From the IMG/VR virus record IMGVR_UViG_3300045988_161114, positions 32,001 through 96,000 of that record: a stretch of DNA of 64,000 nucleotides, one strand, 5' to 3'. The notes below the pieces were generated by a model. The model saw only the letters and a program-made list of their open reading frames with translations. It ran no database searches and was not told the origin of the DNA. This DNA comes from a virus. A program made the translations under genes and the position numbers. Shown here in pieces: positions 14,565-60,718 of this stretch; position 1 is the stretch's first letter; each line of letters opens with the position of its first letter.

Positions 14565-14572
14565 AAATAAAG

Positions 14573-16424: not shown

Positions 16425-16443
16425 TATATTATTCCTTGTTAGT

Positions 16444-16471
16444 GGGGCAACCCATTTTAAGTGGGCGCCCC
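16444..16471 (-). terminator. GC-rich stem-loop (possible terminator or RNA-stabilising hairpin) upstream of the lysis cassette
   Basis: GGGGC/GCCCC and CCCA/TGGG pair across a 7-nt loop. Lies in the 128-bp gap between ORF 16553-17107 and the i-spanin. No clean U-tract on the minus strand. Confidence 0.35.
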
Positions 16472-16552
16472 TTTATAAAAGATTATCTAAACTCCCCAAA
16501 TAGATATAAAACTACCTTGCCTGTTTTATACCATTAGTTTAGATTTTCTTTT

Positions 16553-17107: not shown

Positions 17108-17124
17108 TTTTATTCCCTATATTG

Positions 17125-18840: not shown

Positions 18841-18854
18841 AATTTACCTTTTAT

Positions 18855-18875
18855 AGAGGGGCTGTTAACCCCTCT
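18855..18875 (-). terminator. GC-rich stem-loop between two late genes
   Basis: AGAGGGG (18855-18861) / CCCCTCT (18869-18875) with a 7-nt loop, in the 45-bp gap downstream of the 1212-aa gene. No strong U-tract. Confidence 0.35.
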
Positions 18876-18885
18876 TATTAAGTTA

Positions 18886-22524: not shown

Positions 22525-22536
22525 TATTTAAAATCC

Positions 22537-24123: not shown

Positions 24124-24158
24124 GTTTTGTTTCCTGATTATATTTTAATCTTCTTATA

Positions 24159-44800: not shown

Positions 44801-47800
44801 AGTGAAGATCTATTTCTTGGTGCTGTTTTTCTTATCCAGCCTATATCCATAAGTCCTTCTAGACCTATCTGATACATTCCTAGATATGATTCATTGCCAG
44901 ATGGATTTAGTCTTCCCCTTGACTCTATTGCTGCTATTGATCCTGCATAGCTTCTTAGAAGTGTACTATTTATAAGTGATGTACCTTTTTGACTTGTAAA
45001 GCCAGCACTAGATGCTGCTGCTATACCTTTCAGATCTCCACCGCCAAGACTGTAATCATTGAAGTCTGTAAATGGTTGATATCCGTTTGCAACAACAGAT
45101 TGCATAGCTGTAGATTCTTTTGGTAAAGCTATTCCGTCTTTTGCTTTAGGTTTCTCAAGTGTTCCTGGAGTTATACCCATACCTATTGCAGATTGACCAT
45201 TTGTTCCAGCTATTGCTGAACCAAGGTCTTCCCACCAGCTTTTCTTTTTACCTGATTCAGGAAGATTACTGCTAGGAGCACCTAACCCATTTATTGATCT
45301 ATGGAATGCTGCAGGGTCTACTGGTGTACCGTTTACATTTACTTGATAATGTAAATGTGGGCCTGTAGAATGACCAGTGCTACCACAGAATCCTATTAGC
45401 TGTCCAGCTATGACAGGTTGTCCTGGTTTAACTGCGAATGCGCTTAAGTGCATATACCATGTTGTTATACCACCAGCATGTTGAATGTAAACAGAATTAC
45501 CACCCCTTCCGCGATTAGATGCAACTGTTACTTTGCCAGTAGCTGCTGCATATATTGGAGTTCCAGTTGGACCTGCTAAGTCTATTCCGTGATGAAATCC
45601 TCCGCGTCTCATACCGAAAGGAGAAGATATTCGAACATGCTTCATTATTGATGACAAATCTTTTAGCCACAATCCTGATCCTGAACGAACACCCAGTTGG
45701 GCACCCTTAAGTGTACTTGATGTAAATTGTCCATTCACGCTATCTACACTGCCAGCAGAAACTGTACCATCTGGATTTATTGTTCCTGATGACGCAACGG
45801 CATTAACTTTTGTAAAGTTTCTTGTTCTGTCTGTACTGCTTCCCGGGCCATTAACCATCGCATTGGTATCTTCAAGTATTTCATCTATAAGTGGAGATGA
45901 TTGTTCCCACTTGGCCATTATCTTATCGCCATCAAATATTTGTTGGTCATATACAAATGGCAGGGCAGGTAAATCTTTCCATGAACTATATTCATCTGTT
46001 GAAGGAATGTCATGAAATATTTCTTTATATTTCATATCTGGGATTGCTTCACCAGAAAATGATGTACTGCTTCTATGAGTTTTATAATAACTCTTTTCTT
46101 TTTCCAAATCTTTTGATAAGGCATCAATAGTGTATTTATTGAAAGAGCTTCCAAGTGCACTTTTATATGCAGATGTAACTGCCTGTTCAAAATTTCTTAA
46201 ACGCTCTCTTAGAACTCTTTCCTCAGATGGAGTAGCTGAATGACTTTTTATAGCTTTAATATATTCTTTTATGAACATTGTAGATTTCTCTGTGTCTGTC
46301 ATATTAGAATATTTTTTACTTCTTAGCATAGGTTCTAAGAATAAGCCTACATCTGCGGTAGGGTCTTCCGCTTTCTTAACAGAAGAGTCTATATAAACTT
46401 TATATTCTTCAATAGCTTTAACTATTGGCTTGTTTATCTTATCAAGTACGTCTTTTAGTGCTGATGTATTTGCACCCTTTTTGTACTCTACGCTTGCCAT
46501 AGCAAGCAGATCTCTTATAGTCTCTGCTTGCGCTATTATGTCGTTGTAAGCTTCTTTGTTAGAGGCTTTTACAAATTTACTATTCTCAAGGAAGTCTGTT
46601 GAATCAGATTCTATAAACGAATAGTTATTTGTAATAACATTATTCATATTCCCAGTTGTAGAAGACTGAGATGAATCTATTATTACATATTTAACACCCA
46701 TTGCATTAACAATAGGGTTCTCTATTGCAATTACATCTAATCCTTTTAATGCTGGATATGTAACTCTTATATTTTTTGTAAATTCATCTACGCGGTCAAT
46801 AGCCATAGTAGCTGATGCCGCATCCATACCTTCTTCATGATTAGTTATAGTAGATATATTTATCTCTGTAGGAGAATGTCCTAAATATTGACAATAGGGA
46901 TAACTAAAATCCTGTATTGTTTGGTTTGCAAATCTATTTCTTCTTCTTATATTAATAGATTGTATTGCTATATTATCCTTATTTTTAGAAGAATTAGTGC
47001 CACCGATTAGTTCTCTTTTCCATCCTACATTTATTCTACCAGTCTCATCAAATCTAACTTCTTCATCTGATTTAACTTCTGATATGTTAGCATTGGTTTG
47101 TTGGCCATCTTTAGCATCTGTACCAGATAAGTCAACCTTTTTCAGAATTCTAAATGTTCTTGCCTCTTCCCAACATAAGTCATGAAGCTCTCTATGCAAT
47201 TTAATTGCGTCTGTAAAAACAATAGGGTATCCAAGATACAAATCGAAATCACGATTGTATCCCTGATTTATTATTTGTGTTTTATATTGATTTACATCTG
47301 ACCTGTAGAAGTCTACAAGTTTTTTCATTAAATTAGAATCACCAGGATTCAATTCATATTCAGTTTTGTATCTTTTAGAGCTTTTAGATTTTTTAGAGAT
47401 AGATTTAGAATTTGTTTTTGACTCAGCTTGCTGATTGAAAGATATGAATTTTATTGTTTTTGCTAGTGGCTTCCAGTTTATAGTTTGTAATCTTAATGAA
47501 ACAAAAGCCATACCTTGCATATTGTCTGATGCACCTAATTCAATTTCATATTCATGCAGTGCGTACATGAAGTATCCGTCACCAATACTTAATCCTAGCA
47601 TACTTAAGTCTGATGTACCCATAGCTTCACACCTTATGAACATATATGGGAATGACCTACATATAGATATAAGGTCACACATTTCTTCGACACTATCACT
47701 TTTAGACAAATCGAATGCGAAAGTCGCCAAATGTAGCGACTCCGCAAATCGAGATTTAGATGTCAATACAGATGTGTCCCTTAAGAACTCGTTTTGTGTT

Positions 47801-47880
47801 GTATAAAATTTATTAACTTTATCAACAGAAACTGGTTCTATATCCAATATTCCATTTATTGAAAAGGTAAATCTTGACAT
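41839..47880 (-). CDS. Giant multidomain tail protein (2013 aa): M23 peptidase + lysozyme/transglycosylase-like domain + hub (gpD/gp27-like) region + C-terminal TM cluster
   Basis: M23 motifs FHHGIDLAGPTGTPIYAA (HxxxD) and GHSTGPHLHYQV (HxH) at about 45300-45660. AAIESRG...SYLGMYQIG (catalytic-Glu-type lysozyme-like motif) at about 44560-44960. IRLKAGNKVQIRMGYGNKIDDLPVVFNGLITETDGGDVVRVVAEGYGREL is hub-like. Gly/Ala-rich hydrophobic helices at about 41990-42480. Confidence 0.7.
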   Translation of the reverse strand: MSRFTFSINGILDIEPVSVDKVNKFYTTQNEFLRDTSVLTSKSRFAESLHLATFAFDLSKSDSVEEMCDLISICRSFPYMFIRCEAMGTSDLSMLGLSIGDGYFMYALHEYEIELGASDNMQGMAFVSLRLQTINWKPLAKTIKFISFNQQAESKTNSKSISKKSKSSKRYKTEYELNPGDSNLMKKLVDFYRSDVNQYKTQIINQGYNRDFDLYLGYPIVFTDAIKLHRELHDLCWEEARTFRILKKVDLSGTDAKDGQQTNANISEVKSDEEVRFDETGRINVGWKRELIGGTNSSKNKDNIAIQSINIRRRNRFANQTIQDFSYPYCQYLGHSPTEINISTITNHEEGMDAASATMAIDRVDEFTKNIRVTYPALKGLDVIAIENPIVNAMGVKYVIIDSSQSSTTGNMNNVITNNYSFIESDSTDFLENSKFVKASNKEAYNDIIAQAETIRDLLAMASVEYKKGANTSALKDVLDKINKPIVKAIEEYKVYIDSSVKKAEDPTADVGLFLEPMLRSKKYSNMTDTEKSTMFIKEYIKAIKSHSATPSEERVLRERLRNFEQAVTSAYKSALGSSFNKYTIDALSKDLEKEKSYYKTHRSSTSFSGEAIPDMKYKEIFHDIPSTDEYSSWKDLPALPFVYDQQIFDGDKIMAKWEQSSPLIDEILEDTNAMVNGPGSSTDRTRNFTKVNAVASSGTINPDGTVSAGSVDSVNGQFTSSTLKGAQLGVRSGSGLWLKDLSSIMKHVRISSPFGMRRGGFHHGIDLAGPTGTPIYAAATGKVTVASNRGRGGNSVYIQHAGGITTWYMHLSAFAVKPGQPVIAGQLIGFCGSTGHSTGPHLHYQVNVNGTPVDPAAFHRSINGLGAPSSNLPESGKKKSWWEDLGSAIAGTNGQSAIGMGITPGTLEKPKAKDGIALPKESTAMQSVVANGYQPFTDFNDYSLGGGDLKGIAAASSAGFTSQKGTSLINSTLLRSYAGSIAAIESRGRLNPSGNESYLGMYQIGLEGLMDIGWIRKTAPRNRSSLYNDSYWTIPGGYKAFISSRELQDQAFVLYTQKNIDYLSAKPGWSKLSFQDKVLAVAMSHNGGHSAGWKALQGKDSRDGNNTSRQKYGRVAMSLSAAVSKGNAGVGIFSRDAAGYTSNYYDNVAVQRNNEAVEFNTDPTPWDPNLQGKARISNMVKDYTWGLEKLIPTYKVYLVHGNNENTLFKLINTSVEAVYYEISTVRNIRVEMANQDNPVAVAYFEVLNSLNTSTDPTTGYNTADKLGNTKLDLTSLGSDFANVVAMDQIRLKAGNKVQIRMGYGNKIDDLPVVFNGLITETDGGDVVRVVAEGYGRELQNELIFAGDVLPFTTFASDTSGRYISAAVARIVKNARLQHFGANPKILGEDVDTNSSGTAAQGVSGQSGFSLSNSLWNSSSGEFFFYDFKGPTDHLENFWLMNVDMVDRFFVTEWNDLFPFSLNDYFVNFPVLNKTVWDVITTGRRLFPSSVALIKNIGARCTIFTGIKEQLMVGYETAHSVASEVFENINGGLLDKDSQHAQEVEEAANAKNVKGSLGIPVNSTDGIKKRQRETTAKFEVLKDNPGQVADVVSSVMGSKTIDSTAWVPATNFHMFSSATNIISNQLRLNQDVITQANVEYGTEPSDFGTGKNKMFDMKSNGGLMPAFTKSSYLTDSTLNTEGMAIKTGQGYLLEELEKMYTGSVIISGNPDVAPGDYAYISDSLRQMSGVMKCREVQHILTEDDGYITIITPGMFVEPATHLYSSLYIKLGMFYSMLAQGQREYALVSVNSSPTGEMYSKLSIAPTKIGFWDVGWATAGSLAAAAASAMLLKTAASYVSTALWGPIVGHVASGWARFSKVSFIVRGLSSMKGALGGIWARVATAGRTIATVINGVRTVGLAASIGTGGLIATAAATIVVAAVVIAVWGILKNVWEANKERITMRHRALMKMPLTVYGQEYTAGLLGWNDELSPIELQVKNLKTTWESLAKVWGATKDTKASTKARILYSIATD

Positions 47881-47889
47881 TTGTTATTC

Positions 47890-50800
47890 CTAATAATTTT
47901 GATTCTGGAACCTTATTGTACTTCTTGATGCAGAATCTCCTTGAAGCATACTTCTTAATGACTGCTTCAATCTGTCGTTACTTCTATTATCTATTTGATA
48001 TCCGGCAACTGATACAGATTGTGCTTGTGCGCCATCTGTTATGTATGCAGAATTATTTTCTATTACTGGTAATGTTGGATTTGTTCTAGCAGTAGGAGAA
48101 TTATACATAGGAGATGTTGTGGTTGGAGATTCGGCCCCAACAGTTAAACCTACTATACCTAAACCAAGTCCGCCTAAGAGTATTGATTTCTTATTAGCTT
48201 TTATAGTTGAAATAATTTGATTTCCTATATCAGTAGCAGTATCAATAGTAGCATTAGTTGCCGCTTTTGACAATACTTCTTCACTAAGATTAACCTCTCT
48301 AGCTGTTGATTTTGGTATTCTTGGTATAGCAGCTTCAATCTTATCTGCTTCTTTCCCAGAGTATTTTGAACCAACCATGTTAGGACTATTTATAGTTATA
48401 TCTGCGCCATGTGTTGAAACAGCATCACCTATAAATTTACCTATATCTACAAATTCATCAGCACCAGTAAATATTTCAGGGATAACATTTTTAACCCATT
48501 CTCCTATTTCGTCATATGAGGCAAATCTGCTTTTACCTGCAGACTCTCTCATAGATGCAATAGTTTCAAGAAGTGAGTTTGCATTTGAACCAGATCGTAC
48601 AGTTTTAAGTACGTTCTCTTGCATGGCACCAGCTACAGCCTGTGCCATAAGTGCCCTTTTATTTATAGATTCTTCTATAAGTTTTCTAGACGGATCGCTT
48701 ACACCTAATGCCTTTACGGCATCTGACAAATCTGATCCTCTTTTTCTTTCTATTGCTTGAGATAGAAGTTGTTGAAATTCCGTTATCTCTGCGGCACTAA
48801 ACTTACGTTGTTGAGATTTAACCTGCTTCAAGATATTCTCTTGAAACTGATCTTCTGCTACAGTTTTTGCTCCAGACTTTAATGGGTTCACTACACCATA
48901 TTGTTCCATCTCGGCCATTTTGGTATTAAATGTTTTTAAGAAATTCTTTTCATTTACAAATATATTATTTTGTAACGACATCAAATCTCTTAACTCTTTA
49001 TTAACCTTGTTATTATTAAGATCGTCTGCTCTGAATACGTGAATCTTGTCATCATCAAGGTCGCCGGATGCTGATGCCAATTGGTTTTCACCCATAGCAA
49101 TTACTGTGCCTTTTTGTTTTATGGATGGATCAACAAAGAACGTTACAGCTTGTGCGCTAAGTGAGCTAGATGCAGGAGTACGTATTGCCAACCCTAGACT
49201 ATCTTTAATAGCATATGGTGTTTTTGATTTACGATTAAGTTTGAAACCAAGCGACCTTGCAGTCTCTTCATTTATGAATACCGCATTACGTCCAGCTTTT
49301 TCTTCCTGTGCTCGTATTATCTCTGCGGCCCCTGTTAATGATACAGCAGTAGCAGTTACACCATTTCTTGCAGTTCTTCTTGTAGCAGCTTTTGCAATGG
49401 TTGTATTAGTAGATTTTAATTTAGATTTAAGCTCTTCAAGATCTGTTAAATAAGATTGTTTCGCTATATCTATATATCTACTATTTTCACCATCTCTCAT
49501 AGCCCTCTGATATTCCATCATTGAAACCAAAACATTACGCTTCAACTTGTCTGTTTCCGCCATGATGTCAGAACCATGAATATCTTTAATACCGCTATTA
49601 TCGCTGTTCAGTAGGTTTATAGATAATGACCTTAAACCTATTTTCTTAGATGACATACCTTCTGGAACTATGAGTTTTACAGATGCAACACCATCATTAT
49701 TGATCATATCTTTAAGATGTTTTGCTGCAAACTCTTCCCTATCTTTTGCTTCAAATAAGGCTCTTATAGATTTAGGATCATCGCCGAATATAGAATCAAT
49801 AGACTGCCCATCAACTATGTTTTGTAGTTTTCTTGACCTTAGTTCGTATCTTGAATCTTCATTAGCTTCCCCTATTAATTCTAATGAATCTATTGATACA
49901 CCTGCTGCCTTTAATTGGTCTGCTGCCATCCAGTCCATAGTTGCTTTTGATGTATTTGCACCAGTAAGTTCCCTAGTACCTTCTTGTAGCACACCGAAAG
50001 AACTTAGTCCTAATGCTGTCATGTTCTTTTTTCGCATTGTTTCATATATATTGGCAAAATCATCTTGTAGTGATTTAAACATATCTTCTGGACTTATTCG
50101 TCCATTCGAATAGTCGATCATTCTTGATGAAGACTGCTCTATGTATTTTGCTAGGCCTTTTTCTATATTATTCGGATCAATATGAATATCTCCGCCAGCA
50201 AGATTCAGTGTTATAGGAGAATTGGCCTGTGAGCCAACTTTACTTATCATATCTATCATTGTTGCCATTGCTGTCTGAGATGATTTACCATCAGACATTG
50301 CATTATTGGCAAATGCGGCACCAATAATTTTAGATTGATTAACGTCACTAATCTTACCTGACGCATCTATTTCTTTTTTGATTCTGACAAATTCTCTACC
50401 GGCAGGACTTATTCTCCCATCTGAATCCAGTTCTGTATTGTCAACTATTCTGTTGACTATATTTTTAAGGCTAACCTGGTCTGGGCTATATCTATATTTT
50501 CTGATAGCTCTATCTATTTCTGTTATATCAGAACCTATTTTAGTATCAGAACTTCTAACCATCCATTGAGATGTGAAATTGATACCAGAGTTTCTTTCTA
50601 GATATTCCCTTATCTTTGTGGCATTTTTGTCATCGGAGTTTGCTACAAGACTTAAAAGTCTTTTAAAGTATTTTTTGGTCCCCTCTCCATAGCTTTGAAG
50701 TTCCTCATCTGATGCCATTAGACCAGTTACAAGTGCATGGAAATTTGCCTTGCCTATTTTAGCCATTTTATTTATAGAGAATTTTAGGCCATTGGTTTTA

Positions 50801-52884
50801 TCAGCAGACACTAATCCTAATTCAGACATAGCATATCCATACATAGCATTTTTGTATGAATGCTTATCTAGAATTATTGCATTCGATTTCAAGTCTCCAA
50901 ACAATTTGACAATATTATCATCATTATTTGATAGAGAAGATGTTCCTGCTCCAATTAACTTGTATTTACCGCCTGAATTTACAGCACCAGATAGCTCTAC
51001 AGTTTCAAAATGTCTTGGTGCTCTAATCTCTTCTCCATTAGAGAATCCTATAAGCTCTCCACCTTTGAATGATACTGGGCCTTCATTAGTGCCATTTATA
51101 AGAGATTGTATTTTTTCAGTAGCATCACTAGCAGCTATAAAGTCTTTGCCGCCAAGTGTTACTGTAGTGGCTTTCTTAACAGTGTAATCTGACTCTTGTA
51201 TTATTGATTGACCATCGCCTATAGCTGTGCCTGTAACCCAGCTTCCTAAGCTATAGTTATAATCATATCCTACAGCATTAAATCCTATATTTTTAACGCC
51301 ATTAAATGATGACGTATCTACTCCATTTTTAGATAGTTCCATAACAGCTTTGCTTAGATTATCTTCTCCTCCTGATGTAGAAATATTACCACGTGAAGCA
51401 TATGTTGCATCACGGTCAGGAGATGATACTATACCAGTATATACAGAGTTATTATTGTCACCCATGAATACCTTTGCCTGATCAGAATGTCGTATATTGT
51501 TGAATCCAGGATTTAGACCGTTTCTAAGTCTATCAAGCTCTATGTTTTCTACAATATTTTTATACTCTTCGGCGTTGATATTCTTTATACCTCTTATTTC
51601 TCCAGTCCTATCGTCCCTATAAAATTGCTCACTTATATTTGTAAGTTTATTTTTTATAGGCATATCAGATATATTGACAAGATCTGTTTTAGGTCCTACA
51701 TATTCTATTCTGTCAGAGAATTTTTTAGATACTTCATTAAGAGGTTTATTAGTATTGAGGTGCTCAAACAGCATTGACTCTACAGGAGTAAATGCTTGTG
51801 ATTTTACTTCTTGTGCAGATGTAGAAAATGGTCCACTAGTATTAGTGTATATATTCCCTTTTACTTTTGTGCCATCACCAAGCAATTGAAATTGATTATA
51901 AGATTCGGCAGAGTATATATTGCCGCCTTTTGATACAAATTTGGAGCCATCTTTACTGTACTCTTCCATATGCAGAGAGCCAGTAACACCATCTTTAGTG
52001 ATACTTATTTTACTATCTTCAAAGCTTATCTTGCTGTTTTCTGTATTATTGCCTATATTAGATGCTATTCTAAATGCATCTATTTCTGGATAATTCAGCT
52101 CTTTTACGAGATACTCTTTTATTGCACTGGTCTTCTGTTCAGATGTAGCACTAATATTTAAATCTAATGATTTACCTCTATTAAAGTTTGTTTCTGGAAC
52201 ACTAGACAAATTTAACTTCTGTAAGTTTGAAGTAGGGATAAGTAATCCTGTTTCTGCGTCTACTACACCTGTTATTGCATTAGGCATCGATGAACTTAGC
52301 AGCGCAGATAATATGTTTTTATCTTTTACGTGGGCCGGAAGCGACTGTTTTATTTGCTCAAGATTCTTATTGTTAAGCCATGAATCAAATATATTATTAA
52401 ATAGGTCTTCGCCTAAAACAGATGATATATCTTGTCCATATATCATAGAGAAGTTTCTTTTAACAGCCTCTTTATATGATTGCATACCCTTCTGGGTTAA
52501 TTTATGCATTTCAGACAACGCCACTTGAGCTTCTCTGCTGCTAGTATTGTTACCAAATCTACCTATATTTAAAGATGCATAAGCTTGTGAACTTAGATTC
52601 ATATGCATCTCTTTTGCATTTCTAGCAAACTTCTCAGTAAACCTGTTTGCTGCCCTTCTGGATAATCCTCTGTATCCAGAAAGGTCAGCTTTATTAAATG
52701 CTATATCGTCAGCTATTTCTCTTTTCGCTCTAGAGATTCTTTTAGATATTTGAAGAGAATTGCCAACATAAGCACCTATGCCCATACCTAATGCTGCTGC
52801 TATAGGATGGTCTTCTGGGTCTTGAGACATTGCGCCTAATATTGCTCCGCCTATCATAAGTTTAGGTTGTTTAATTGGATCCAT
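47890..52884 (-). CDS. Giant tail-internal/virion protein (1664 aa); candidate tape measure or ejected protein
   Basis: Uninterrupted 5-kb ORF. Gly/Ala-rich hydrophobic segments at both ends (MIGGAILGAM..AAALGMGIGAYVG; ILLGGLGLGIVGLTVGA). Otherwise polar and helical-looking. No catalytic motif recognised. Confidence 0.4.
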   Translation of the reverse strand: MDPIKQPKLMIGGAILGAMSQDPEDHPIAAALGMGIGAYVGNSLQISKRISRAKREIADDIAFNKADLSGYRGLSRRAANRFTEKFARNAKEMHMNLSSQAYASLNIGRFGNNTSSREAQVALSEMHKLTQKGMQSYKEAVKRNFSMIYGQDISSVLGEDLFNNIFDSWLNNKNLEQIKQSLPAHVKDKNILSALLSSSMPNAITGVVDAETGLLIPTSNLQKLNLSSVPETNFNRGKSLDLNISATSEQKTSAIKEYLVKELNYPEIDAFRIASNIGNNTENSKISFEDSKISITKDGVTGSLHMEEYSKDGSKFVSKGGNIYSAESYNQFQLLGDGTKVKGNIYTNTSGPFSTSAQEVKSQAFTPVESMLFEHLNTNKPLNEVSKKFSDRIEYVGPKTDLVNISDMPIKNKLTNISEQFYRDDRTGEIRGIKNINAEEYKNIVENIELDRLRNGLNPGFNNIRHSDQAKVFMGDNNNSVYTGIVSSPDRDATYASRGNISTSGGEDNLSKAVMELSKNGVDTSSFNGVKNIGFNAVGYDYNYSLGSWVTGTAIGDGQSIIQESDYTVKKATTVTLGGKDFIAASDATEKIQSLINGTNEGPVSFKGGELIGFSNGEEIRAPRHFETVELSGAVNSGGKYKLIGAGTSSLSNNDDNIVKLFGDLKSNAIILDKHSYKNAMYGYAMSELGLVSADKTNGLKFSINKMAKIGKANFHALVTGLMASDEELQSYGEGTKKYFKRLLSLVANSDDKNATKIREYLERNSGINFTSQWMVRSSDTKIGSDITEIDRAIRKYRYSPDQVSLKNIVNRIVDNTELDSDGRISPAGREFVRIKKEIDASGKISDVNQSKIIGAAFANNAMSDGKSSQTAMATMIDMISKVGSQANSPITLNLAGGDIHIDPNNIEKGLAKYIEQSSSRMIDYSNGRISPEDMFKSLQDDFANIYETMRKKNMTALGLSSFGVLQEGTRELTGANTSKATMDWMAADQLKAAGVSIDSLELIGEANEDSRYELRSRKLQNIVDGQSIDSIFGDDPKSIRALFEAKDREEFAAKHLKDMINNDGVASVKLIVPEGMSSKKIGLRSLSINLLNSDNSGIKDIHGSDIMAETDKLKRNVLVSMMEYQRAMRDGENSRYIDIAKQSYLTDLEELKSKLKSTNTTIAKAATRRTARNGVTATAVSLTGAAEIIRAQEEKAGRNAVFINEETARSLGFKLNRKSKTPYAIKDSLGLAIRTPASSSLSAQAVTFFVDPSIKQKGTVIAMGENQLASASGDLDDDKIHVFRADDLNNNKVNKELRDLMSLQNNIFVNEKNFLKTFNTKMAEMEQYGVVNPLKSGAKTVAEDQFQENILKQVKSQQRKFSAAEITEFQQLLSQAIERKRGSDLSDAVKALGVSDPSRKLIEESINKRALMAQAVAGAMQENVLKTVRSGSNANSLLETIASMRESAGKSRFASYDEIGEWVKNVIPEIFTGADEFVDIGKFIGDAVSTHGADITINSPNMVGSKYSGKEADKIEAAIPRIPKSTAREVNLSEEVLSKAATNATIDTATDIGNQIISTIKANKKSILLGGLGLGIVGLTVGAESPTTTSPMYNSPTARTNPTLPVIENNSAYITDGAQAQSVSVAGYQIDNRSNDRLKQSLRSMLQGDSASRSTIRFQNQNY

Positions 52885-52889
52885 TTTTA

Positions 52890-55800
52890 TTACCTATTAT
52901 ATATAGTCATATCGAAATCACCATGACCACTATTGCTTATATTGACATTTACTGCTCTTACGCCATTACGATATAGTTCATCTTTTATCATATTCACAGC
53001 ATCAAACCTTTGTTGGGCCTTAGTTCTTCTAATAGATTTAAGCTGAGTTGTAACCTGATCTTCTGCAAGTATTGCTGATTGTCTTTTTAGATCGTCTTGG
53101 TCATCTTCGTAATAACCAAATTCTATGGCATTCTCACCACCTATATTTAATGTTCTAAGTTTTATATCTTTGACATTTAATCTAGGGTCCCATCCTGCAA
53201 ACTTCTCATCAGGCATTCCTGTTGCATCGACTATTAATTGCTCTGCTCTTCTTTCTTGTAGGTATTCTCTAAATGATATACCTATGTCGGCATCGCCACT
53301 TCTTTTATATGCACCATAAACTTGTGAGTTATTTTGTATAAGTTGCTGCTCTTCATCTTGTAGATATTCTGAGACATCTCCGCCGGATTCAATTACATCT
53401 TTACGGCTCCACAACATCTTGTACATTTCTGATACATTGTTTCCATCAACAATAGCAGCAATACGTTGTCTATCAGAGTCCTTTGCATTTACAAATGATG
53501 TAAAATACTGTTTCTCTTCGCTGGATAATCCCATATATGCAGAACTTACATCTTTTTCGGTATCAAGTCCTGATGCCAATGCACCGTATGTAGTCTTGTA
53601 AGCTTTTGCCTTTGCCTGATTCGCTATAAATAAATTGCCTTTAACATTTTCTCTATAAACTTTCATTTGTTTATAGTATTCCAATGCTTCAAAGTAATTA
53701 TCTATATTACGTTTTTCTTGTGTATGCTCTGGTATATATGATTTATCAAATGATTTATAGCTTTCCTCAAAGAATGGTCTTATGAAATGTTTAAATGGTT
53801 CATTCCATAATGCTGTATCAGAAGCTATTAACTGAGTTTTCTCGTAATCTTCTATAGCTGTTCTTTGGTGTAGTAACTTACCGGCAGGTCTGAAGAATGT
53901 TAATCTCTCTGTCGGTAGTTCTGCATTATGAGTTATTGTTTCCCATAACTTACCAAGAACCTCTCCACCAACAGATACATTATCAAAATCTTCATCAGTC
54001 TTATACTCTGCAAATGTTTTCTTTTGCGCTCTTCTTTGTAACTGATCCCAAGTATTCTCGAATATTCTTTTCTCGGACTCTGTCATTTCACCAGAGTTAT
54101 ATCTAGACTCCATTAACTCTTTTGCATTGTAGAATTCACTTGAGCCGTATGCTACATCTGATAGAACTTTAAATTTATGTATATCAGGATATTCTTCTAA
54201 ACTCAATCCTGCAACTTCTGGATTGTAATGTTCATATCCTGCACCTGGCATTCTATCATAGCCAAGTTCTACATTTGCGTAGTAGTTACCTTTTGAGAAA
54301 TCTGTGTAATATTCTCCTCTGGGAAGCCAAGATGGAGCAACACTGTTATGTAAAGGATTTGCTCTATCATACAATACACTAGATGACATTGGAACTATAC
54401 GACGCAGTATATCCGCTGCGCCAAATAAACCACCAAGGTTTTGTTCAGTAAATTCTCTTGCAAAGTTTGTTGATTCACCTGACCTTGCTAACTGGTTCTT
54501 TTGAGAAAAATCGCCTACAGCAAAATCACTTAGCACACCAGATACTGCCCATCCTTTAAGACCTATAAAGTCTGATGCAGAGTTATAGATATATTGTGCT
54601 GATTCTGCATATGGAGAGTATGTAAGGTTCTTACGCCCAGTAATCATTTTGTCATTTATCAATGACTGTTCTACATTTGAATAGTTTACTGGAACTTCAA
54701 AACTTGGTTTTCTTGTTATATCTCCAAAATTATATGCAAATGCATATGAGTTCTCATCACTAACATAGTAGTCCTGTGGTACTGACTGAAGATTTTCCAT
54801 CAGCTGAGCCATGTTAGGATTTATTCTATCTGGTTTAATTATTTGACCTATTGTACGTTCAAATATTTTACCGGCCCAACCACCTACTGATACGTCCATA
54901 CCCCATATTGGATATGGCATATCATCTTGGTGCATTTCTTCAAATCTATATGGATTTTGTAAATAATCTATTGGATTAAGGAATGGATTTAGGTCTTCTT
55001 TGGTGTCTCCATCGCCATAAAGAATTTTATCTTTATTGCCTGCAATTAATCTTTGATACCAGTTCTTAGTGAAGTATTTTACACCGCCACCCTCTATATC
55101 CGTAGACCCAGAGAACCATAATGCATTTGATCTTTGTTCAACATCTTCACCGTATAGATATCTGTCTTTTAACGAATCTGATGATTCACCAGCTAAAGCA
55201 CCAGGAAGAAATGGTAATGCTAATGCTAGTCCAGCTAGTGCACCTCTCATTGCCCATTTTTTAGTATTAGCTATTCTGCCTAATGATGATCCTATCGGCG
55301 TATTACTTACAAGCTTAGATACGCTAGAGTTTATAACATCACCCTCTGCATGAGCAACCCTTTGTCCAGCTTTATATCCATCATCTGACAACACAGATGG
55401 AACTACACGTTTACTGTAAGCTACAGTACCGGCAAGCATTGCTCCTGCTAATGGGAATCCAGCTAGTCTTAGTAACGATGTTGAACCAGGGGCTACATAT
55501 TCTTGTTGAGTTGTATACTCTTCAAACCTATCAGATACTGTTTCTGCATATGCTATTCTAGCATTTACTGCTGTTGTTGCTACACCTTCTAATATACCCT
55601 GGTCATATCCGCTTCCACTTGTACCGATTACTTTAGCCATATTATCCAGTGTATAATATGCTGCACCAAGTATACCAAGTTTTACTGCACCATGTTTAAC
55701 ATATCCAACTGCCAAGTCTGATATTTTCATATCAGCATTTGCATGTCTATTTATTCTTCCATATTTATTTATAAATCTAAATATACCATTATTTTCATTA

Positions 55801-56711
55801 AACAGTGTTCCGCCAAGTTCTTGAACGAATCCTAATGGCTCGTTGACCATATTGAAGCCTTGAGCTATACCTTGTCCTATTACAGATTTAATCCATCCCT
55901 TATTTATATTAGCGTCTTTTGCATCTGCAATTATTGTAAATGGAGCTTCTGTATCAAGAATATTTTTAGACAATTCAAATATTTCTTTTCTAGAAGAAAA
56001 GCTCATATCCTGCTGATGTATAATATGTCTTCTTAGTATTTTATTATACATTGAACTTTGAGCATGGCCATTTGTATGACCTGTCCATTCTGATGTAACA
56101 AGTCTTGCATTGCTTATTACTTCTTCATCACTAGAAGAAAATAATTTACCATCTCTGTATAACAGCCCGGTAGATATGTCCGCCGATGTTATACCTCTGT
56201 TGCCATATTTATGTGCTAATTCTTCAAAATATTTCTTTTGATGTTTTAATAGTTCAGGAGTGAAGAAATGCTCACCATTTTGAGTTGCAAATGGCTGCAT
56301 TATATGAGAAGTCTGGAATGTTCTTAAAATAGAAAAAGGGGAGAGTTCCTCAAACGCCCTAGCAGTGTTCATTGCTAAGTTTGTTAAGGTGACTCTCCCG
56401 CCGTATGATCGGATAGCATCATCTGCTGTTCCATTAATTGATTCAGATAAATAACTTAGAGTTATGTAATCTCTAATTTTATTTTGTGCGCTTTGCCTTT
56501 TTAGTATCTCTTTTACCGTAAATAATGCACCTGCTGATAATCCATACTTTGTTATAGAGCCTATTATTTCTTTTGTAGCCTGTATCTCTTCATATGTATT
56601 TACATCATCTGATGTATACATATTATATGGGGATTTAACATCCCCTGGTTGTATTCCCTTATCAAATACTTTTTGGCCAAAAATATTTGCAGCTAGATTT
56701 TGTACTGACAT
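52890..56711 (-). CDS. Giant tail-internal/virion protein (1273 aa); candidate tape measure
   Basis: First gene after the chaperone-like pair, which is the canonical tape-measure position. Internal hydrophobic Gly/Ala segments (LLRLAGFPLAGAMLAGTVAY, ALAGLALALPFLPGALAG). Aromatic-rich. Confidence 0.4.
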   Translation of the reverse strand: MSVQNLAANIFGQKVFDKGIQPGDVKSPYNMYTSDDVNTYEEIQATKEIIGSITKYGLSAGALFTVKEILKRQSAQNKIRDYITLSYLSESINGTADDAIRSYGGRVTLTNLAMNTARAFEELSPFSILRTFQTSHIMQPFATQNGEHFFTPELLKHQKKYFEELAHKYGNRGITSADISTGLLYRDGKLFSSSDEEVISNARLVTSEWTGHTNGHAQSSMYNKILRRHIIHQQDMSFSSRKEIFELSKNILDTEAPFTIIADAKDANINKGWIKSVIGQGIAQGFNMVNEPLGFVQELGGTLFNENNGIFRFINKYGRINRHANADMKISDLAVGYVKHGAVKLGILGAAYYTLDNMAKVIGTSGSGYDQGILEGVATTAVNARIAYAETVSDRFEEYTTQQEYVAPGSTSLLRLAGFPLAGAMLAGTVAYSKRVVPSVLSDDGYKAGQRVAHAEGDVINSSVSKLVSNTPIGSSLGRIANTKKWAMRGALAGLALALPFLPGALAGESSDSLKDRYLYGEDVEQRSNALWFSGSTDIEGGGVKYFTKNWYQRLIAGNKDKILYGDGDTKEDLNPFLNPIDYLQNPYRFEEMHQDDMPYPIWGMDVSVGGWAGKIFERTIGQIIKPDRINPNMAQLMENLQSVPQDYYVSDENSYAFAYNFGDITRKPSFEVPVNYSNVEQSLINDKMITGRKNLTYSPYAESAQYIYNSASDFIGLKGWAVSGVLSDFAVGDFSQKNQLARSGESTNFAREFTEQNLGGLFGAADILRRIVPMSSSVLYDRANPLHNSVAPSWLPRGEYYTDFSKGNYYANVELGYDRMPGAGYEHYNPEVAGLSLEEYPDIHKFKVLSDVAYGSSEFYNAKELMESRYNSGEMTESEKRIFENTWDQLQRRAQKKTFAEYKTDEDFDNVSVGGEVLGKLWETITHNAELPTERLTFFRPAGKLLHQRTAIEDYEKTQLIASDTALWNEPFKHFIRPFFEESYKSFDKSYIPEHTQEKRNIDNYFEALEYYKQMKVYRENVKGNLFIANQAKAKAYKTTYGALASGLDTEKDVSSAYMGLSSEEKQYFTSFVNAKDSDRQRIAAIVDGNNVSEMYKMLWSRKDVIESGGDVSEYLQDEEQQLIQNNSQVYGAYKRSGDADIGISFREYLQERRAEQLIVDATGMPDEKFAGWDPRLNVKDIKLRTLNIGGENAIEFGYYEDDQDDLKRQSAILAEDQVTTQLKSIRRTKAQQRFDAVNMIKDELYRNGVRAVNVNISNSGHGDFDMTIYNR

Positions 56712-56713
56712 GA

Positions 56714-57244
56714 TTACACCGGAGGAACATTATTCTGTGGTTCTTCTATATTTATTTCTTTTATATGCTCTGGATATGTTGCATGACATATAGCATATAA
56801 TTCAAATAATTTATTTACTGGAAGTTCTACAACTTCTAAGTATGGAGTGTGCATATATCTAGAAACTATTGCAGCCATTTGGTCTAGTAGAGTTACCGAC
56901 TCCCTGTCTCTTTCAAATGCCTTTTGTGGATCTTGTGCATATTCTAATGACTTAGATAATATTACACTAGATACAGTTGTTATGAATCCTGCAGGTGCCT
57001 CATCGAAGTTTACATCTCCTACTATTCCTGGAATGGAGATATAGCATTCTCTGAATATATCTTCGTATAGCTCTTCTCTTACATAGCCTTTTTCTAGATC
57101 CATTCTCAGTATTCTCTGTATCTCTACAGAATTAAGTAGTCTAGCTATTACTATAAGATTTCTATAAATATATCCGCCCAATTCTATATCAGTATCATTA
57201 AATGGAATTATTATACTTCCAGATTTGACACCTATTGCATTCAT
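56714..57244 (-). CDS. Tail assembly chaperone-like protein (176 aa)
   Basis: Position between the tube paralogues and the giant ORFs. Assignment is by position only. Confidence 0.35.
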   Translation of the reverse strand: MNAIGVKSGSIIIPFNDTDIELGGYIYRNLIVIARLLNSVEIQRILRMDLEKGYVREELYEDIFRECYISIPGIVGDVNFDEAPAGFITTVSSVILSKSLEYAQDPQKAFERDRESVTLLDQMAAIVSRYMHTPYLEVVELPVNKLFELYAICHATYPEHIKEINIEEPQNNVPPV

Positions 57245-57245
57245 A

Positions 57246-57740
57246 TTAAATTACCTTTATTTGACTTAAAGCTAATGATTCAGGTACAAATGAAGATTTG
57301 TACATTATCTGCTCTTTTAATGATGATACAACACCAGCACTTGATGTTGCCATAAATTTTTCATCTGGCTTAGGGTACAACAGACATTTCTTAACTATTG
57401 CCTCTTCGCCACGAAGTGCTTCGTTTAAGAATCCGCTTTTCATAAGCTGTTTATATTCTTGTCGTCTTAATGTACGCCATAAATATAAATCTGATTCATT
57501 TAGAATAGTTGATATATGAATTACGCCATATTGTGCTTTCCAGTTTTCGATATCTGCTTCTGTTGGAGCATTTTCAAGATTAGCTAATGTCTTAACTATT
57601 AAAGACATTTCCGACTCTTCTTGTACCTCTTTGTCTTTTTCTTCTTCTAGACGTTGAGATATTTCTATTGCCTCTTCAACAGTAAGGTCATCTTCTGGTA
57701 GCGTGCTTAATCCTTTTACTTCTTCTACTGTTAATGCCAT
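57246..57740 (-). CDS. Acidic tail assembly chaperone-like protein (164 aa)
   Basis: Highly acidic N-terminal half (EEAIEISQRLEEEKDKEVQEESE). Position upstream of the candidate tape measure. Confidence 0.4.
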   Translation of the reverse strand: MALTVEEVKGLSTLPEDDLTVEEAIEISQRLEEEKDKEVQEESEMSLIVKTLANLENAPTEADIENWKAQYGVIHISTILNESDLYLWRTLRRQEYKQLMKSGFLNEALRGEEAIVKKCLLYPKPDEKFMATSSAGVVSSLKEQIMYKSSFVPESLALSQIKVI

Positions 57741-58569: not shown

Positions 58570-59967
58570 CTATCCTGATTTCTTATTTGTCTTACGCCAT
58601 ACAGAAGGCATAACAACTGTATTGCCAGTTCCCCATAGCCCTCTTTTTTCTCTTTTTGCGGCTAATGCAGCTTCATTAAGCTTGGCTCTTTTATCTTCTG
58701 ATTCGCCAATCTGTTTAACACCAGCATCCATATAATGCGCTGTTCCAGCTGATACTGCTGCTAATACATAATTATAATTATACACTAGAGTACGGCCATA
58801 AACATCTGTGCCTGCAATTTTTACTACGCCATCTTTTACATCTTGATCCCATTTGCCAGACTTAACATACTCCTTCATAAAGTCTGAAGCCTTATACCCA
58901 TACTCTTGTGGCTTAAGATCTCTATGCTCAGTCTCTGGTGTATCTATACCTAAAAGACGTATAGTGAATTTACCTTTATAATCGCTTCCTGTTGATGTTT
59001 TTACGCCACCATTCCATACTAAGGTGTCGCCGTCGTCTACTTCAAACTTATCGCCTTTATCTAGTGCAGTAAGTGATGACGAGTCTATATCCTGTGATTT
59101 TGGATATACATATTTTTTAGTGCCACCATTTGTATATGGATCGCTTTTATATATTCTATACTCGTAAGGAAGGGATTCCAAATTGTAATTAGGATCCTCT
59201 CCTAATCCTGCTAATTGAGATAATGTTGATATAACCTTTTGCTCATCTGGTGTAATTTGTCCATCAAGATTAGCCTGGTTTTTATATTTTTCAAGTGCGT
59301 TTTTAAACCACTCTTGATCTGGATTTGTATTAGATTTATCTGATTTATATTTTGTATTAGATTTGTCTGATAGCTCAGATGCTTTCTTTCCTGTGCTACC
59401 AGTAGTTATATTGTACTTTGTAGAATTCAAACTTTCAAGAGTCTGTCTAGCATCGCGTGCTACAAATGATATTGTATTTTCAACAATAAGGTCTTGTATA
59501 GAATGTACTTGACCGGAATTAATTAGTGTCGCGCCATATATTATTTCAGATACGGAGAAGTTGCCGTATTCAGAACTTAATACTATTATTATATCGAATG
59601 GCAATATATCATCCATCATAAGATGGTGATATGTTTTAGAGTTTTCATATTTTAATGCGTATATAGAATCTATATCTTTATTCAATCCTATATCTTTTGA
59701 TACTTCATTTAAGAATGCCCTTAAATCATCATTTAGGAACATTGCTTTTATAATAGAGCCCGCTACATATCTTTTGCCAATAGCAAACCCGTCGATATTG
59801 GTGTTCCCTAAATTATAGACAGGTACTTTATCCCTGTATGTCTGATATGAGAGAGATATCAAACTTCCCATATATAGTGCGCCGTATCCAGGGAAGTTAA
59901 AAATAATGTGGGTGGCATCGCCACCCACTGAATGATACTCTCCCTTTCGTATATTGTCATATGACAT
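58570..59967 (-). CDS. Tail-tube paralogue fused to a C-terminal staphylococcal nuclease (SNase/thermonuclease) domain
   Basis: N-terminus: GEYHSVGG, KVPVYNLG, AIGKRYVAGSII, LPFDIIIVLSSEYG and ISFVARDA all parallel the tube ORF. C-terminus: DDGDTLVW, FTIRLLGIDTPETEHR and DVYGRTLVYNY match S. aureus nuclease IDGDTVKL, FRLLLVDTPETKHP and DKYGRGLAYIY. Confidence 0.8.
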   Translation of the reverse strand: MSYDNIRKGEYHSVGGDATHIIFNFPGYGALYMGSLISLSYQTYRDKVPVYNLGNTNIDGFAIGKRYVAGSIIKAMFLNDDLRAFLNEVSKDIGLNKDIDSIYALKYENSKTYHHLMMDDILPFDIIIVLSSEYGNFSVSEIIYGATLINSGQVHSIQDLIVENTISFVARDARQTLESLNSTKYNITTGSTGKKASELSDKSNTKYKSDKSNTNPDQEWFKNALEKYKNQANLDGQITPDEQKVISTLSQLAGLGEDPNYNLESLPYEYRIYKSDPYTNGGTKKYVYPKSQDIDSSSLTALDKGDKFEVDDGDTLVWNGGVKTSTGSDYKGKFTIRLLGIDTPETEHRDLKPQEYGYKASDFMKEYVKSGKWDQDVKDGVVKIAGTDVYGRTLVYNYNYVLAAVSAGTAHYMDAGVKQIGESEDKRAKLNEAALAAKREKRGLWGTGNTVVMPSVWRKTNKKSG

Positions 59968-59994: not shown

Positions 59995-60669
59995 TTATTT
60001 GCTATTGTAGCTGTCAATTGCCATCCAGTTAGAAACACGTTTAGCAATGAATGACATTTGTTTTTCTAGAACAAGGTCATCAACAGACACACCACCAGCT
60101 TCACTCATAAGCTCTACACCGTAGATAACCATCTTAGATGTATGACCGTATTCATTTGTAGCAACAAGGCTGATATCAAATGCCAATACTTGGTCAGCAA
60201 GGTTAGCTTTTGTTTTTGTACGCAATGCGTTATTGATGCTTGTATTAGAAGTGAGATTATTTGCAGTGAAGTTGTAGTCAGCAGCAACTGTACCGCCTGA
60301 TCTAGTTGCAGCAGAAGCAGCAGTAGATGCATAACCATCTTGATATTTACCGCCATTGATTTGGCTATAAATACCGCCACGTTGATAGTTAGCAGACTCG
60401 TGTTTGCTCAGATAAACAGTTGTATTATCTTGTTCATCCATAGCTTCAAGCAGAGAGTCACGGTCGAATACAGTGAAGATACAAGCTCCAGAAACATAAC
60501 GTTTACCACGTGCAATTGCTTTGGCGTCAGGAGAGCCCATTGTAAATACAGGAGCCTTTTCTCTGTCTACACGGTAAGAAACCATTGACATTTCGCCGAA
60601 TACTTTGCTACCGAATACAGGTGTGATATCTACACCACCAAAGCTGTGGTATTCCTTAAATTCTGACAT
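59995..60669 (-). CDS. Tail tube protein
   Basis: 224 aa, immediately downstream of the sheath gene. Founder of the three-member paralogue set. The sheath-tube order is conserved in contractile tails. Confidence 0.7.
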   Translation of the reverse strand: MSEFKEYHSFGGVDITPVFGSKVFGEMSMVSYRVDREKAPVFTMGSPDAKAIARGKRYVSGACIFTVFDRDSLLEAMDEQDNTTVYLSKHESANYQRGGIYSQINGGKYQDGYASTAASAATRSGGTVAADYNFTANNLTSNTSINNALRTKTKANLADQVLAFDISLVATNEYGHTSKMVIYGVELMSEAGGVSVDDLVLEKQMSFIAKRVSNWMAIDSYNSK

Positions 60670-60688
60670 AATTTTATCCTGATTGTTA

Positions 60689-60710
60689 AGGAGAGGTGTT
60701 ACCCTCTCCT
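60689..60710 (-). terminator. Stem-loop between sheath and tube genes (attenuator or RNA-stability hairpin)
   Basis: AGGAGAGG (60689-60696) / CCTCTCCT (60703-60710), perfect 8-bp stem with a 6-nt loop, in the 49-bp sheath-tube gap. Weak U-tract. Confidence 0.4.
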
Positions 60711-60718
60711 ATTCTTTA

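Follow-up and report, generated by a model that had tools for sequence, protein, structure and literature searches.

A predicted tail-delivered RNA polymerase at the tape-measure position in a large contractile-tailed phage

The window analyzed here is a 64,000-nucleotide stretch of IMG/VR record IMGVR_UViG_3300045988_161114 (positions 32,001 to 96,000), and its tail genes include three very large minus-strand ORFs. These encode G1 (1273 aa), G2 (1664 aa) and a baseplate hub protein (2013 aa), all with ATG starts and together amounting to 4950 codons, exactly as counted in a preliminary description of this DNA. The spacing between the three ORFs is just 5 to 9 bases. In transcription order, G1 is preceded by genes for the sheath, the tube protein, a tube paralogue and two small proteins, and the sheath gene (60719..62965) is the start of the tail module:

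60719..62965, minus strand: tail sheath, 748 aa (phrog_16991 'tail sheath', E 4.8e-69, full length)
59995..60669, minus strand: tail tube protein, 224 aa (phrog_9206, E 2e-44)
58570..59967, minus strand: tube paralogue with a staphylococcal nuclease domain, 465 aa (phrog_9206 at aa 33-177; SNase PF00565 at aa 335-445, E 5e-14)
57246..57740, minus strand: tail chaperone-like protein, 164 aa (41% identity, E 9e-30, to ME3 gp033)
56714..57244, minus strand: small protein, 176 aa, the second in the chaperone position (ME3 gp034 agrees in position and size)
52890..56711, minus strand: G1, 1273 aa (0305phi8-36 gp145 / ME3 gp035 family)
47890..52884, minus strand: G2, 1664 aa (occupant of the tape-measure slot)
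41839..47880, minus strand: baseplate hub giant, 2013 aa (M23 domain; aligns collinearly with 0305phi8-36 gp147, 'baseplate hub protein')
45313-45597, minus strand: hub Peptidase_M23 domain, aa 762-856 (Pfam, E 1.9e-33)

The phrog_9206 family is labeled 'major head protein', and the 0305phi8-36 record calls the homologue gp140 tail tube. The annotation of ME3 gp033 as 'putative tail chaperonin' was made by similarity to 0305phi8-36 gp143. Equivalents of the 176-aa gene are also found in the metagenomic contigs L004-L006 and L009, and its product has no family match in PHROG or Pfam. The hub protein has a hydrophobic C-terminal tail with peaks at aa 1813-1831 and 1908-1926, while its N-terminal ~700 residues were assigned no function by PHROG and Pfam searches. 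G1 adjoins the chaperone genes and G2 lies one gene further, as in 0305phi8-36. With a sheath of phrog_16991 and a chaperone-like gene upstream in transcription order, the earlier placement of the giants in the tape-measure position of a contractile-tailed phage stands, and the best explanation of the locus is a tail-lumen and ejection module, belonging to a large phage with a contractile tail from the ME3 / 0305phi8-36 lineage.

The G1-G2-hub trio recurs with similar lengths in eight other genomes, namely Acinetobacter phage vB_AbaM_ME3 (ME3; gp035, gp036 and gp037), Bacillus phage 0305phi8-36 and six contigs from metagenomes (107-230 kb). Full-length proteins of 1664 aa (87-97% identity) and 1274 aa (91%) are present in independent assemblies. 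Because of these independent full-length homologues and the recurrent trio, the ORF lengths are considered genuine, and the concern that the frames might be artefactually long is ruled out. A G1 homologue and a slot protein are arranged in this way in all nine genomes examined, with homology to G2 in seven; G2 has syntenic counterparts in ME3 gp036 and the slot proteins of L004-L007 and L009. The arrangement of two giant genes noted previously is real and conserved in nine genomes, but it is not new, having been known from 0305phi8-36 (PMC2147016). In that phage the gene order is the same (chaperones gp143/144, gp145, gp146, gp147; Hardies et al. 2007, PMC2147016), the chaperonins being separated by a single gene from the assigned tape measure gp146 with the virion protein gp145 between. 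Like the hub protein of the window, gp147 is oversized, gp27-like and equipped with wall-degrading domains. Unlike G2, gp146 is 2537 aa long, owes its tape-measure assignment to its length and lacks an RxP..DxDxD motif. The best BLASTP match between gp146 and G2 has an E of 0.036, and full-length, N-terminal and C-terminal G2 HMMs all miss gp146; with no sequence homology detected, the relation between the two is positional only.

By its sequence, G1 belongs to the conserved gp145 family of virion proteins. It shares 31.7% identity with ME3 gp035 across 91% of its length, the G1-family HMM matches gp145 at E 1.4e-105 (family positions 500-1286), and G1 and gp145 align in collinear BLASTP segments and occupy the same genomic position. 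The gp145 record bears the note 'identified as virion protein by mass spectrometry'. The family has no Pfam entry and no PHROG match. Its conservation is strong: about 60 columns are invariant, and the length without inserts is 1228-1311 aa. Two hydrophobic segments stand out in G1:

55419..55475, minus strand: hydrophobic segment 1, aa 413-431, LLRLAGFPLAGAMLAGTVA (Kyte-Doolittle 19-residue mean 1.52)
55188..55244, minus strand: hydrophobic segment 2, aa 490-508, GALAGLALALPFLPGALAG (hydropathy 1.66)

Segment 1 is kept in the family as LAGFPLAGAM; in segment 2, ALPFLPGAL is nearly invariant, and the core shared with gp145 begins here (HMM position 500). The AlphaFold model of G1 is compact and alpha-helical (pLDDT 77.4, pTM 0.71), and this predicted fold is unlike any solved structure, Foldseek having returned no solved relative from the PDB (best E 0.85). 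In BFVD, the model matches A7KUR9 (E 3.8e-5), which we take to be a 0305phi8-36 protein, while tape-measure entries match it only at an E of at least 0.19 and a probability of at most 0.06. A tape-measure role for G1 is disfavored, since its compact model, near-fixed length and high conservation are unlike a ruler. Of the tape-measure likeness once attributed to both giants, the part that holds concerns G2, which sits in the slot and diverges fast; G1, directly after the chaperones, is not rod-like.

G2 evolves very differently. Only 13 matches were found among 1.84 billion representative proteins, and the 17 G2-family sequences of our alignment A3 share 15-30% identity (~24% mean). The family again has no Pfam entry and no PHROG match, and the proposal that both giants might prove to be ordinary families, such as a split tape measure, does not apply. 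The features of G2 are as follows, from N- to C-terminus:

52750..52857, minus strand: N-terminal glycine-zipper-like hydrophobic segment, aa 10-45 (consensus GAxxGAxTQDPxDxPIAGxxGxGIGA)
48595..51387, minus strand: polymerase-like core, ~aa 500-1430 (AlphaFold model and Foldseek)
51211-51216, minus strand: D557-G558 (invariant)
50887..50907, minus strand: KLFGDLK (K660...K666), candidate basic pair of a beta-like barrel (invariant in 17/17 sequences of A3, also in the regional alignment A7)
49009..49221, minus strand: predicted beta'-type double-psi barrel, aa 1222-1292 (invariant R, P, D, D, D; profile A6)
49174-49182, minus strand: R1235-T-P1237 (invariant R and P)
49048-49062, minus strand: D1275-L-D-D-D1279 (invariant D1275, D1277, D1279)
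48127..48183, minus strand: C-terminal transmembrane-type segment, aa 1568-1586 (hydropathy 1.62)

The stretch of one G2 orthologue homologous to the N-terminal segment matches Pfam PF05433 'Glycine zipper 2TM' (E 9e-5). The C-terminal segment is kept as NKxxLxxGxAGLAA and is followed by a conserved ~80-aa tail. Gly/Ala-rich hydrophobic segments are thus present in both giants, as first described (G1 aa 413-431 and 490-508; G2 aa 1568-1586, and also aa 10-45), but they coincide with tape-measure-type divergence in G2 only, G1 being strongly conserved.

Neither giant had been credited with an enzymatic motif, which is wrong for G2: its sequence and model indicate that it carries the catalytic signature, an invariant RxP...DxDxD, and the predicted fold of a cell-type, two-barrel RNA polymerase. 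K660, K666, R1235, P1237, D1275, D1277 and D1279 are invariant in 17/17 G2 orthologues. A slot protein with RxP..DxDxD adjoins the G1 homologue in the window, ME3, L004, L005, L006, L007 and L009, whereas the slot proteins of 0305phi8-36 and L008 lack the motif. When profile A6 (92 columns covering the G2 barrel) was searched against 177,635 PDB sequences, three matches were returned at E<=10, all of them QDE-1 polymerases (E 0.0052-0.0092). The alignment runs from RxP to the catalytic DYDGD of QDE-1, with similarity limited to ~57 residues, and is reproduced by the full-length G2 profile. In addition, hhalign places the G2 GDLDDD onto the catalytic DFDGD of Thermus phage P23-45 gp96, over 21 columns and at a probability of 0.9%.

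Structure prediction points the same way. The template-free AlphaFold model of G2 (aa 440-1470, pLDDT 70.9; flanks 1-439 and 1471-1664 lie outside it) is mixed alpha/beta, not a helical rod. The best 50 Foldseek matches of this model in the PDB are all RNA polymerases, either catalytic chains of the beta' type (those of the non-virion RNAP from phage AR9, bacterial beta' and Pol II Rpb1) or QDE-1; by a rough estimate, RNA polymerases make up well under 1% of PDB chains. The AR9 match (E 1.5e-3, probability 1.00) is to a chain that is a fragment of a split beta'. E-values range from about 1.5e-3 to 5.5e-2, none being <=1e-3, and with low TM-scores (0.10-0.15) what G2 has in common with known polymerases is confined to the core. 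Within the modeled barrel, the order of elements (strand, RxP, strand, strand, helix, GDLDDD, strand) agrees with what we take to be that of the beta' barrel. K660/K666 and D557-G558 fall in a beta-rich region of the model ~600 residues upstream of the DxDxD barrel; a profile of the K660/K666 region found no polymerase in the PDB and no similarity to the other barrel of G2, and it is from the invariant residues only that we infer a candidate beta-like second barrel. Two long helices (aa 1343-1393 and 1398-1428) come after the DxDxD barrel, where a bridge helix and trigger loop would be expected; in them T1368 is invariant and E1423 and K1427 nearly so, with no residue-level match to known bridge helices. 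Overall, sequence and model show a polymerase-like core of ~1000 residues in a single chain, flanked by a glycine zipper and a transmembrane segment. Whether the template preferred by G2 is DNA or RNA cannot be read from its sequence.

These observations bear on two simpler accounts of G2. It could be an ordinary tape measure whose DxDxD motif and polymerase-like model reflect coincidence or a modeling artefact: G2 holds the slot that in 0305phi8-36 belongs to the 'hypothetical tape measure', its sparse matches imply divergence as fast as that of tape measures, its hydrophobic segments lie at the termini, and its Foldseek E-values are only modest. We consider this highly unlikely, as 17 sequences averaging ~24% identity all keep an R, a P and three Asp at fixed spacing, the barrel profile singles out QDE-1 polymerases from the entire PDB set, the best 50 structural matches are all RNA polymerases, and the core is modeled as mixed alpha/beta rather than as a helical rod. 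Alternatively, the core may be degenerate and catalytically dead, with a structural role in the tail, which would suit the sharing of a core fold only, the low TM-scores, a second barrel without database support, and the slot proteins of 0305phi8-36 and L008 that manage without DxDxD. A dead domain, however, would not hold three Asp, RxP and two Lys invariant at 15-30% identity, making this account quite improbable.

An active polymerase in this position would have several parallels. In P23-45, the tape measure protein gp96 contains a virion two-barrel RNA polymerase at aa 327-1124 (Chaban et al. 2024, PMC10770324). Like G2, gp96 is a giant slot protein of a long-tailed phage, with a DxDxD-bearing two-barrel polymerase inside it and membrane segments. 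It differs in being 5002 aa long, with an N-terminal polymerase and ~3800 aa of tape measure and M23 behind it, whereas G2 has 1664 aa and a central polymerase, M23 being in the separate hub protein. P23-45 is moreover a siphovirus with an 84-kb genome, while the present phage has a contractile tail, contigs related to it reach 120-230 kb and G1 precedes G2. No similarity between G2 and gp96 was found past DxDxD (hhalign; an HMM search gave no meaningful match), which places G2 outside the gp96 family, though by analogy the function may be alike. The gp66 protein of crAss-like phage phi14:2, a two-barrel RNA polymerase made of one chain and packaged in the virion (Drobysheva et al., bioRxiv 10.1101/2020.03.07.982082), is likewise giant, has a DxDxD-type site and went unrecognized as a polymerase by sequence searches. 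On either side of the gp66 gene lies another large gene, and the virion contains the products of both neighbors too (bioRxiv 10.1101/2020.03.07.982082), an arrangement that parallels the G1-G2-hub trio; phi14:2 differs as a podovirus without tape measure or sheath. No sequence similarity between G2 and gp66 was detected, and gp66 (6VR4) is absent from the best 50 Foldseek matches. Neurospora QDE-1, the sole family found by sequence, aligns with the G2 barrel from R-x-P to GDxDGD and likewise consists of one chain that seems to lack the large inserts of cellular beta and beta', but is a cellular RNA-silencing enzyme. Its clade unites diverse single-subunit RNA polymerases of phages and plasmids, such as YonO, with the eukaryotic RNAi polymerases. 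In ME3, gp036 keeps all catalytic residues and is annotated as 'hypothetical protein'; ME3 is the only cultured phage with a G2-family protein in a 50,697-record collection.

A YonO-like role offers a further reading, in which G2 is a real two-barrel polymerase that is not packaged and G1 is the true tape measure. G1 does lie directly after the chaperone genes, the canonical tape-measure position, and non-virion polymerases of the YonO type are found in phages, 0305phi8-36 among them, where a separate gene for one was reported (PMC7824862). This reading is unlikely, though it deserves some weight. The G2 gene is one of a series of late tail genes that almost abut, with gaps of 5-9 bases, and for a polymerase made only late the simplest reading is that it is packaged for the next infection. 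The glycine zipper and transmembrane segment would be needless in a cytoplasmic polymerase, and G1 has the three non-ruler traits described above.

G2 is therefore predicted to be a tail-delivered virion RNA polymerase, which we regard as the probable reading, and a large contractile-tailed phage would probably inject its own transcription enzyme through its tail. We found no report of such an enzyme in the ME3 / 0305phi8-36 lineage. G2 would be made late with the tail proteins and built into the tail as tape measures are. Once the hub M23 peptidase had opened the cell wall, sheath contraction would expel G2 through the tube, its hydrophobic ends would insert in the envelope, and its polymerase core would transcribe the first-entering DNA. 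A folded polymerase of ~110 kDa cannot fit folded in the tube lumen, which counts against delivery. The virion proteomics available by homology is that of 0305phi8-36 gp145, for G1, as gp146 there shows no detectable homology to G2. The delivery logic has been shown experimentally for P23-45 gp96 (PMC10770324) and proposed for crAss-like gp66 and N4 vRNAP; the latter is expelled together with two other ejection proteins (PMC13434306). G1 might similarly be co-ejected, partnering the polymerase as conduit or anchor instead of acting as a ruler, and the earlier idea that one giant is not a ruler but, for example, ejected cargo fits the evidence.

As to tail length, the module holds no tape-measure candidate besides G2, and if any protein in it sets length, G2 is the likelier, as a whole or via its non-polymerase flanks. 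That neither G1 nor G2 acts as a classical tape measure has only the slimmest chance of being right: the modeled regions of both are unlike a classical extended tape measure and the hub has ~700 N-terminal residues without assigned function, but no long-tailed phage is known to us that lacks a tape measure. The unassigned small proteins between sheath and hub are ORFs of only 274 and 176 aa, too short for the task; at ~1.5 A per residue, both fall far short of a large myovirus tail. If G2 is indeed delivered through the tail as a polymerase, the phage would not need the host enzyme to start its program, and the act of transcription might in addition help to pull the DNA in.

The three giant genes of the locus, encoding G1 (1273 aa), G2 (1664 aa, in the tape-measure slot) and the hub (2013 aa), are separated by gaps of 5-9 bases and accompany other tail genes as follows.

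52890-56711, minus strand: G1, ORF with ATG start
47890-52884, minus strand: G2, ORF with ATG start
41839-47880, minus strand: hub, ORF with ATG start
Upstream of G1 in transcription order, minus strand: tail sheath (phrog_16991, E 4.8e-69)
Upstream of G1, past the sheath in transcription order: tube protein
58570-59967, minus strand: tube paralogue fused to a staphylococcal nuclease (SNase)
Upstream of G1 in transcription order: 274-aa protein
Upstream of G1 in transcription order: two small proteins (164 aa and 176 aa)

The Gly/Ala-rich hydrophobic segments that the preliminary description had reported in G1 and G2 are present, and the ORFs are not artefacts of sequencing: near-identical proteins of full length are encoded in independent assemblies, and other genomes have the same trio. 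The 164-aa protein is 41% identical to a 'putative tail chaperonin' of Acinetobacter phage vB_AbaM_ME3 (ME3). A reading of the two small proteins as an overlapping-domain pair in the style of gp143/gp144 was rejected, as no mutual similarity was found.

The region has no megablast match among 50,697 phage records. At the protein level, G1 is 31.7% identical to ME3 gp035 (genome 234.9 kb) across 91% of its length and locally matches gp145 of Bacillus phage 0305phi8-36 (genome 218.9 kb). Both phages have the common order of chaperonins, a giant protein, a second giant protein and a giant hub, and the same order is found in six metagenomic contigs of 107-230 kb with G1 homologues, which makes the arrangement a trait of the lineage. 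For 0305phi8-36 it was already described by Hardies et al. 2007 (PMC2147016), and the record of this phage marks both gp145 and gp146 as detected in virions by mass spectrometry.

The window contains no tRNA genes, and no common promoter-like motif is obvious by eye in its few intergenic regions. These few gaps hold GC-rich stem-loops (14565-14606, 16425-16552, 18841-18885 and 60670-60718), one of them at the junction of the minus-strand structural genes with the plus-strand genes for replication (primase-helicase, ribonucleotide reductase, ligase) and another between the sheath and tube genes. G+C reaches 0.37-0.41 at 16000-24000 (fibre-like genes) and 42000-46000 (hub) and is 0.28-0.33 over most of the window. 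A 528-aa protein (22537-24123, minus strand) matches alanine-zipper and tropomyosin-like coiled-coil families; encoded among the distal tail genes, it probably forms part of a fibre or whisker.

G2 is a highly divergent protein. It has no match by tblastn in the same phage collection and none in PHROGs or Pfam; across 28 G1 and 17 G2 family members, these two libraries matched only inteins, SNase inserts and a glycine zipper. Word-indexed homologue searches, with the single sequence and with an alignment, returned three near-identical proteins only; an exhaustive HMMER scan with residues 465-1664 found 13 proteins among 1.84 billion cluster representatives, none of them annotated. The sole member from a cultured phage in the collection is ME3 gp036, annotated as hypothetical and ~20% identical to G2 over 469 residues (E 3e-6). 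In an alignment of 17 orthologues, chosen by synteny and from the HMMER scan (mean identity 24%), K660, K666, R1235, P1237, D1275, D1277, D1279 and T1368 are invariant. An R-x-P motif with (G)DxDxD ~40 residues further on characterises the double-psi barrel that binds metal in RNA polymerases of the cellular type (PMC10770324, PMC7824862).

Profile searches and structure prediction together show a putative two-barrel polymerase core with intact catalytic residues inside this giant tape-measure-slot protein. Firstly, a 92-column profile of the G2 barrel, searched against 177,635 distinct PDB sequences, gave three matches at E<=10, all of them QDE-1 two-barrel polymerases (E 0.0052-0.0092), aligned from R-S-P through the catalytic DYDGD; the full-length G2 profile gives the same QDE-1 alignment with a non-significant E-value. 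Secondly, the best 50 Foldseek matches in the PDB to a template-free AlphaFold model of residues 440-1470 (pLDDT 70.9, pTM 0.47) are all catalytic chains of RNA polymerases, namely the non-virion RNAP of phage AR9 (E 1.5e-3, probability 1.00), ~45 bacterial beta' subunits, Pol II Rpb1 and QDE-1. The TM-scores are low (0.10-0.15), so only the core is held in common; the literature on these polymerase families likewise describes little in common outside the DxDxD region. Finally, a candidate second, beta-type barrel is suggested by a strand-rich region with an invariant KLFGDLK and D557-G558; searching the PDB with a profile of this region, and comparing it with the catalytic barrel by hhalign, returned nothing. 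The predicted core is flanked by an N-terminal glycine zipper and by a C-terminal transmembrane segment with a conserved tail. A slot protein with this core adjoins a G1 homologue in seven genomes, the window included.

Descent from known slot proteins was considered and rejected in two cases. Hhalign places GDLDDD of G2 on the catalytic DFDGD of gp96 from phage P23-45 with negligible probability, and the DxDxD motif alone aligns. Homology to gp146 of 0305phi8-36 was rejected at the sequence level: gp146 (17973-25586 of its record) and the slot protein of metagenomic contig L008 (16573-22038) lack both the RxP..DxDxD signature and detectable similarity to G2, and consequently the evidence that places the slot protein in virions does not carry over to G2 by homology. 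The G1 homologues beside these two proteins are clear. Within the lineage, the protein in the slot has apparently been exchanged for another or has changed too far to be recognised; 0305phi8-36 is reported to carry a separate YonO-like polymerase (PMC7824862).

G1 belongs to a family with ~60 invariant columns across 16 sequences with identities down to 24%, a degree of conservation that is unusual for a tail-lumen protein. Its length is near-constant at 1228-1311 aa except where inteins or an SNase insert interrupt it. The family HMM matches gp145 with E 1.4e-105, and the common core comprises the C-terminal ~790 aa, from the second hydrophobic segment on. G1 itself matches no family in Pfam or PHROGs and shows no recognisable catalytic motif. 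The AlphaFold model (28-sequence alignment; pLDDT 77.4, pTM 0.71) is mostly helical and compact, with no rod, so that a tape-measure role fits the position of G1 but failed the structural test. Foldseek found no relative of the model in the PDB (best E 0.85) and only family members in BFVD, with tape measures appearing just at E>=0.19; identification as a polymerase partner or a known ejection protein was rejected on these results. A duplicated or split tape measure, which would make G1 and G2 paralogues, was rejected as well, since the two show no similarity (best E 1.0). G1 is a widespread, conserved virion protein with a predicted fold that has no solved relative, and we flag it as such. 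Inteins with LAGLIDADG endonucleases interrupt its homologues P0008, P0011, P0026, P0036-P0039, P0041 and P0042 at three different conserved sites (G1 residues ~533, ~762 and ~1172); inteins are unusual for a virion protein of this sort, and their placement suggests that the sites matter functionally.

The hub carries an M23 peptidase domain (E 1.9e-33) and is collinear with gp147, the gp27-like hub of 0305phi8-36. This domain lies N-terminal of the gp27-like core in the window hub and at the C-terminus in gp147. The window hub has a strongly hydrophobic tail at its end (residues 1813-1831 and 1908-1926, the latter with a hydropathy of 2.58), and residues ~960-1100 appear transglycosylase-like by eye, without Pfam confirmation. 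The SNase domain, carried in the window by the tube paralogue, is found in relatives within G1 homologues (proteins P0028-P0031 among its carriers) or the hub (contigs L004 and L005), and at 6666-8054 of contig L006. This distribution gives the impression of a nuclease domain that roves among tail-lumen and hub proteins.

In the mechanism we consider most likely, G2 would be assembled into the tail and driven out upon contraction, and the ejected protein would transcribe the incoming DNA. We infer these steps from the place of G2 in a tightly packed cluster of late tail genes, from its membrane-type termini, from the fact that no other gene between sheath and hub is a tape-measure candidate, and from precedent. 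In crAss-like phage phi14:2, the products of both genes flanking the vRNAP gene are also packaged (bioRxiv 10.1101/2020.03.07.982082), and the vRNAP of N4 leaves with two other ejection proteins to make an ejectosome (PMC13434306). G1 may act as a partner that forms or anchors the conduit, which is the least secure step. As for tail length, which the preliminary description held that only one of the two could set, the stronger candidate is G2 or its flanks, because G2 varies in length (1490-2037 aa in the family) whereas G1 is constant and compact.

Systems of this kind, with a two-barrel polymerase in the virion linked to the tape measure, are already known from P23-45. G2 differs from P23-45 gp96 in belonging to contractile-tailed large phages, in its other architecture, in the lack of detectable homology and in its conserved giant partner. 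A jumbo-phage survey that includes ME3 counted such phages as having no polymerase of their own (PMC7824862); the supplements of the P23-45 paper (PMC10770324) do not mention ME3, 0305phi8-36 or Acinetobacter, and our literature search found no paper naming ME3-like slot proteins a polymerase. Because ME3 is cultured, the polymerase idea can be tested directly on gp036.

A phage that carries its own RNA polymerase into the cell can begin infection without the host enzyme, and each of the few known cases (N4, phiKZ-like, crAss-like, P23-45) altered the view of its infection cycle. If correct, the present reading would add the first contractile-tailed lineage with a polymerase in the tape-measure slot and give a function to the 'hypothetical protein' gp036 of a cultured Acinetobacter baumannii phage. 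It also sharpens a question that P23-45 had posed, namely how a narrow tail tube can hold a large enzyme and let it out. More speculatively, and with considerable doubt on our part, G1, G2 and the hub might constitute an 'ejectosome' that large contractile-tailed phages carry in the tail and that is active in transcription, with the slot protein as polymerase and the new-fold G1 as a membrane conduit or a coupler of DNA entry to transcription, either invented independently or anciently related to the P23-45, crAss and N4 solutions. Were this true, tail- or virion-delivered two-barrel polymerases would be far commoner than annotation implies.
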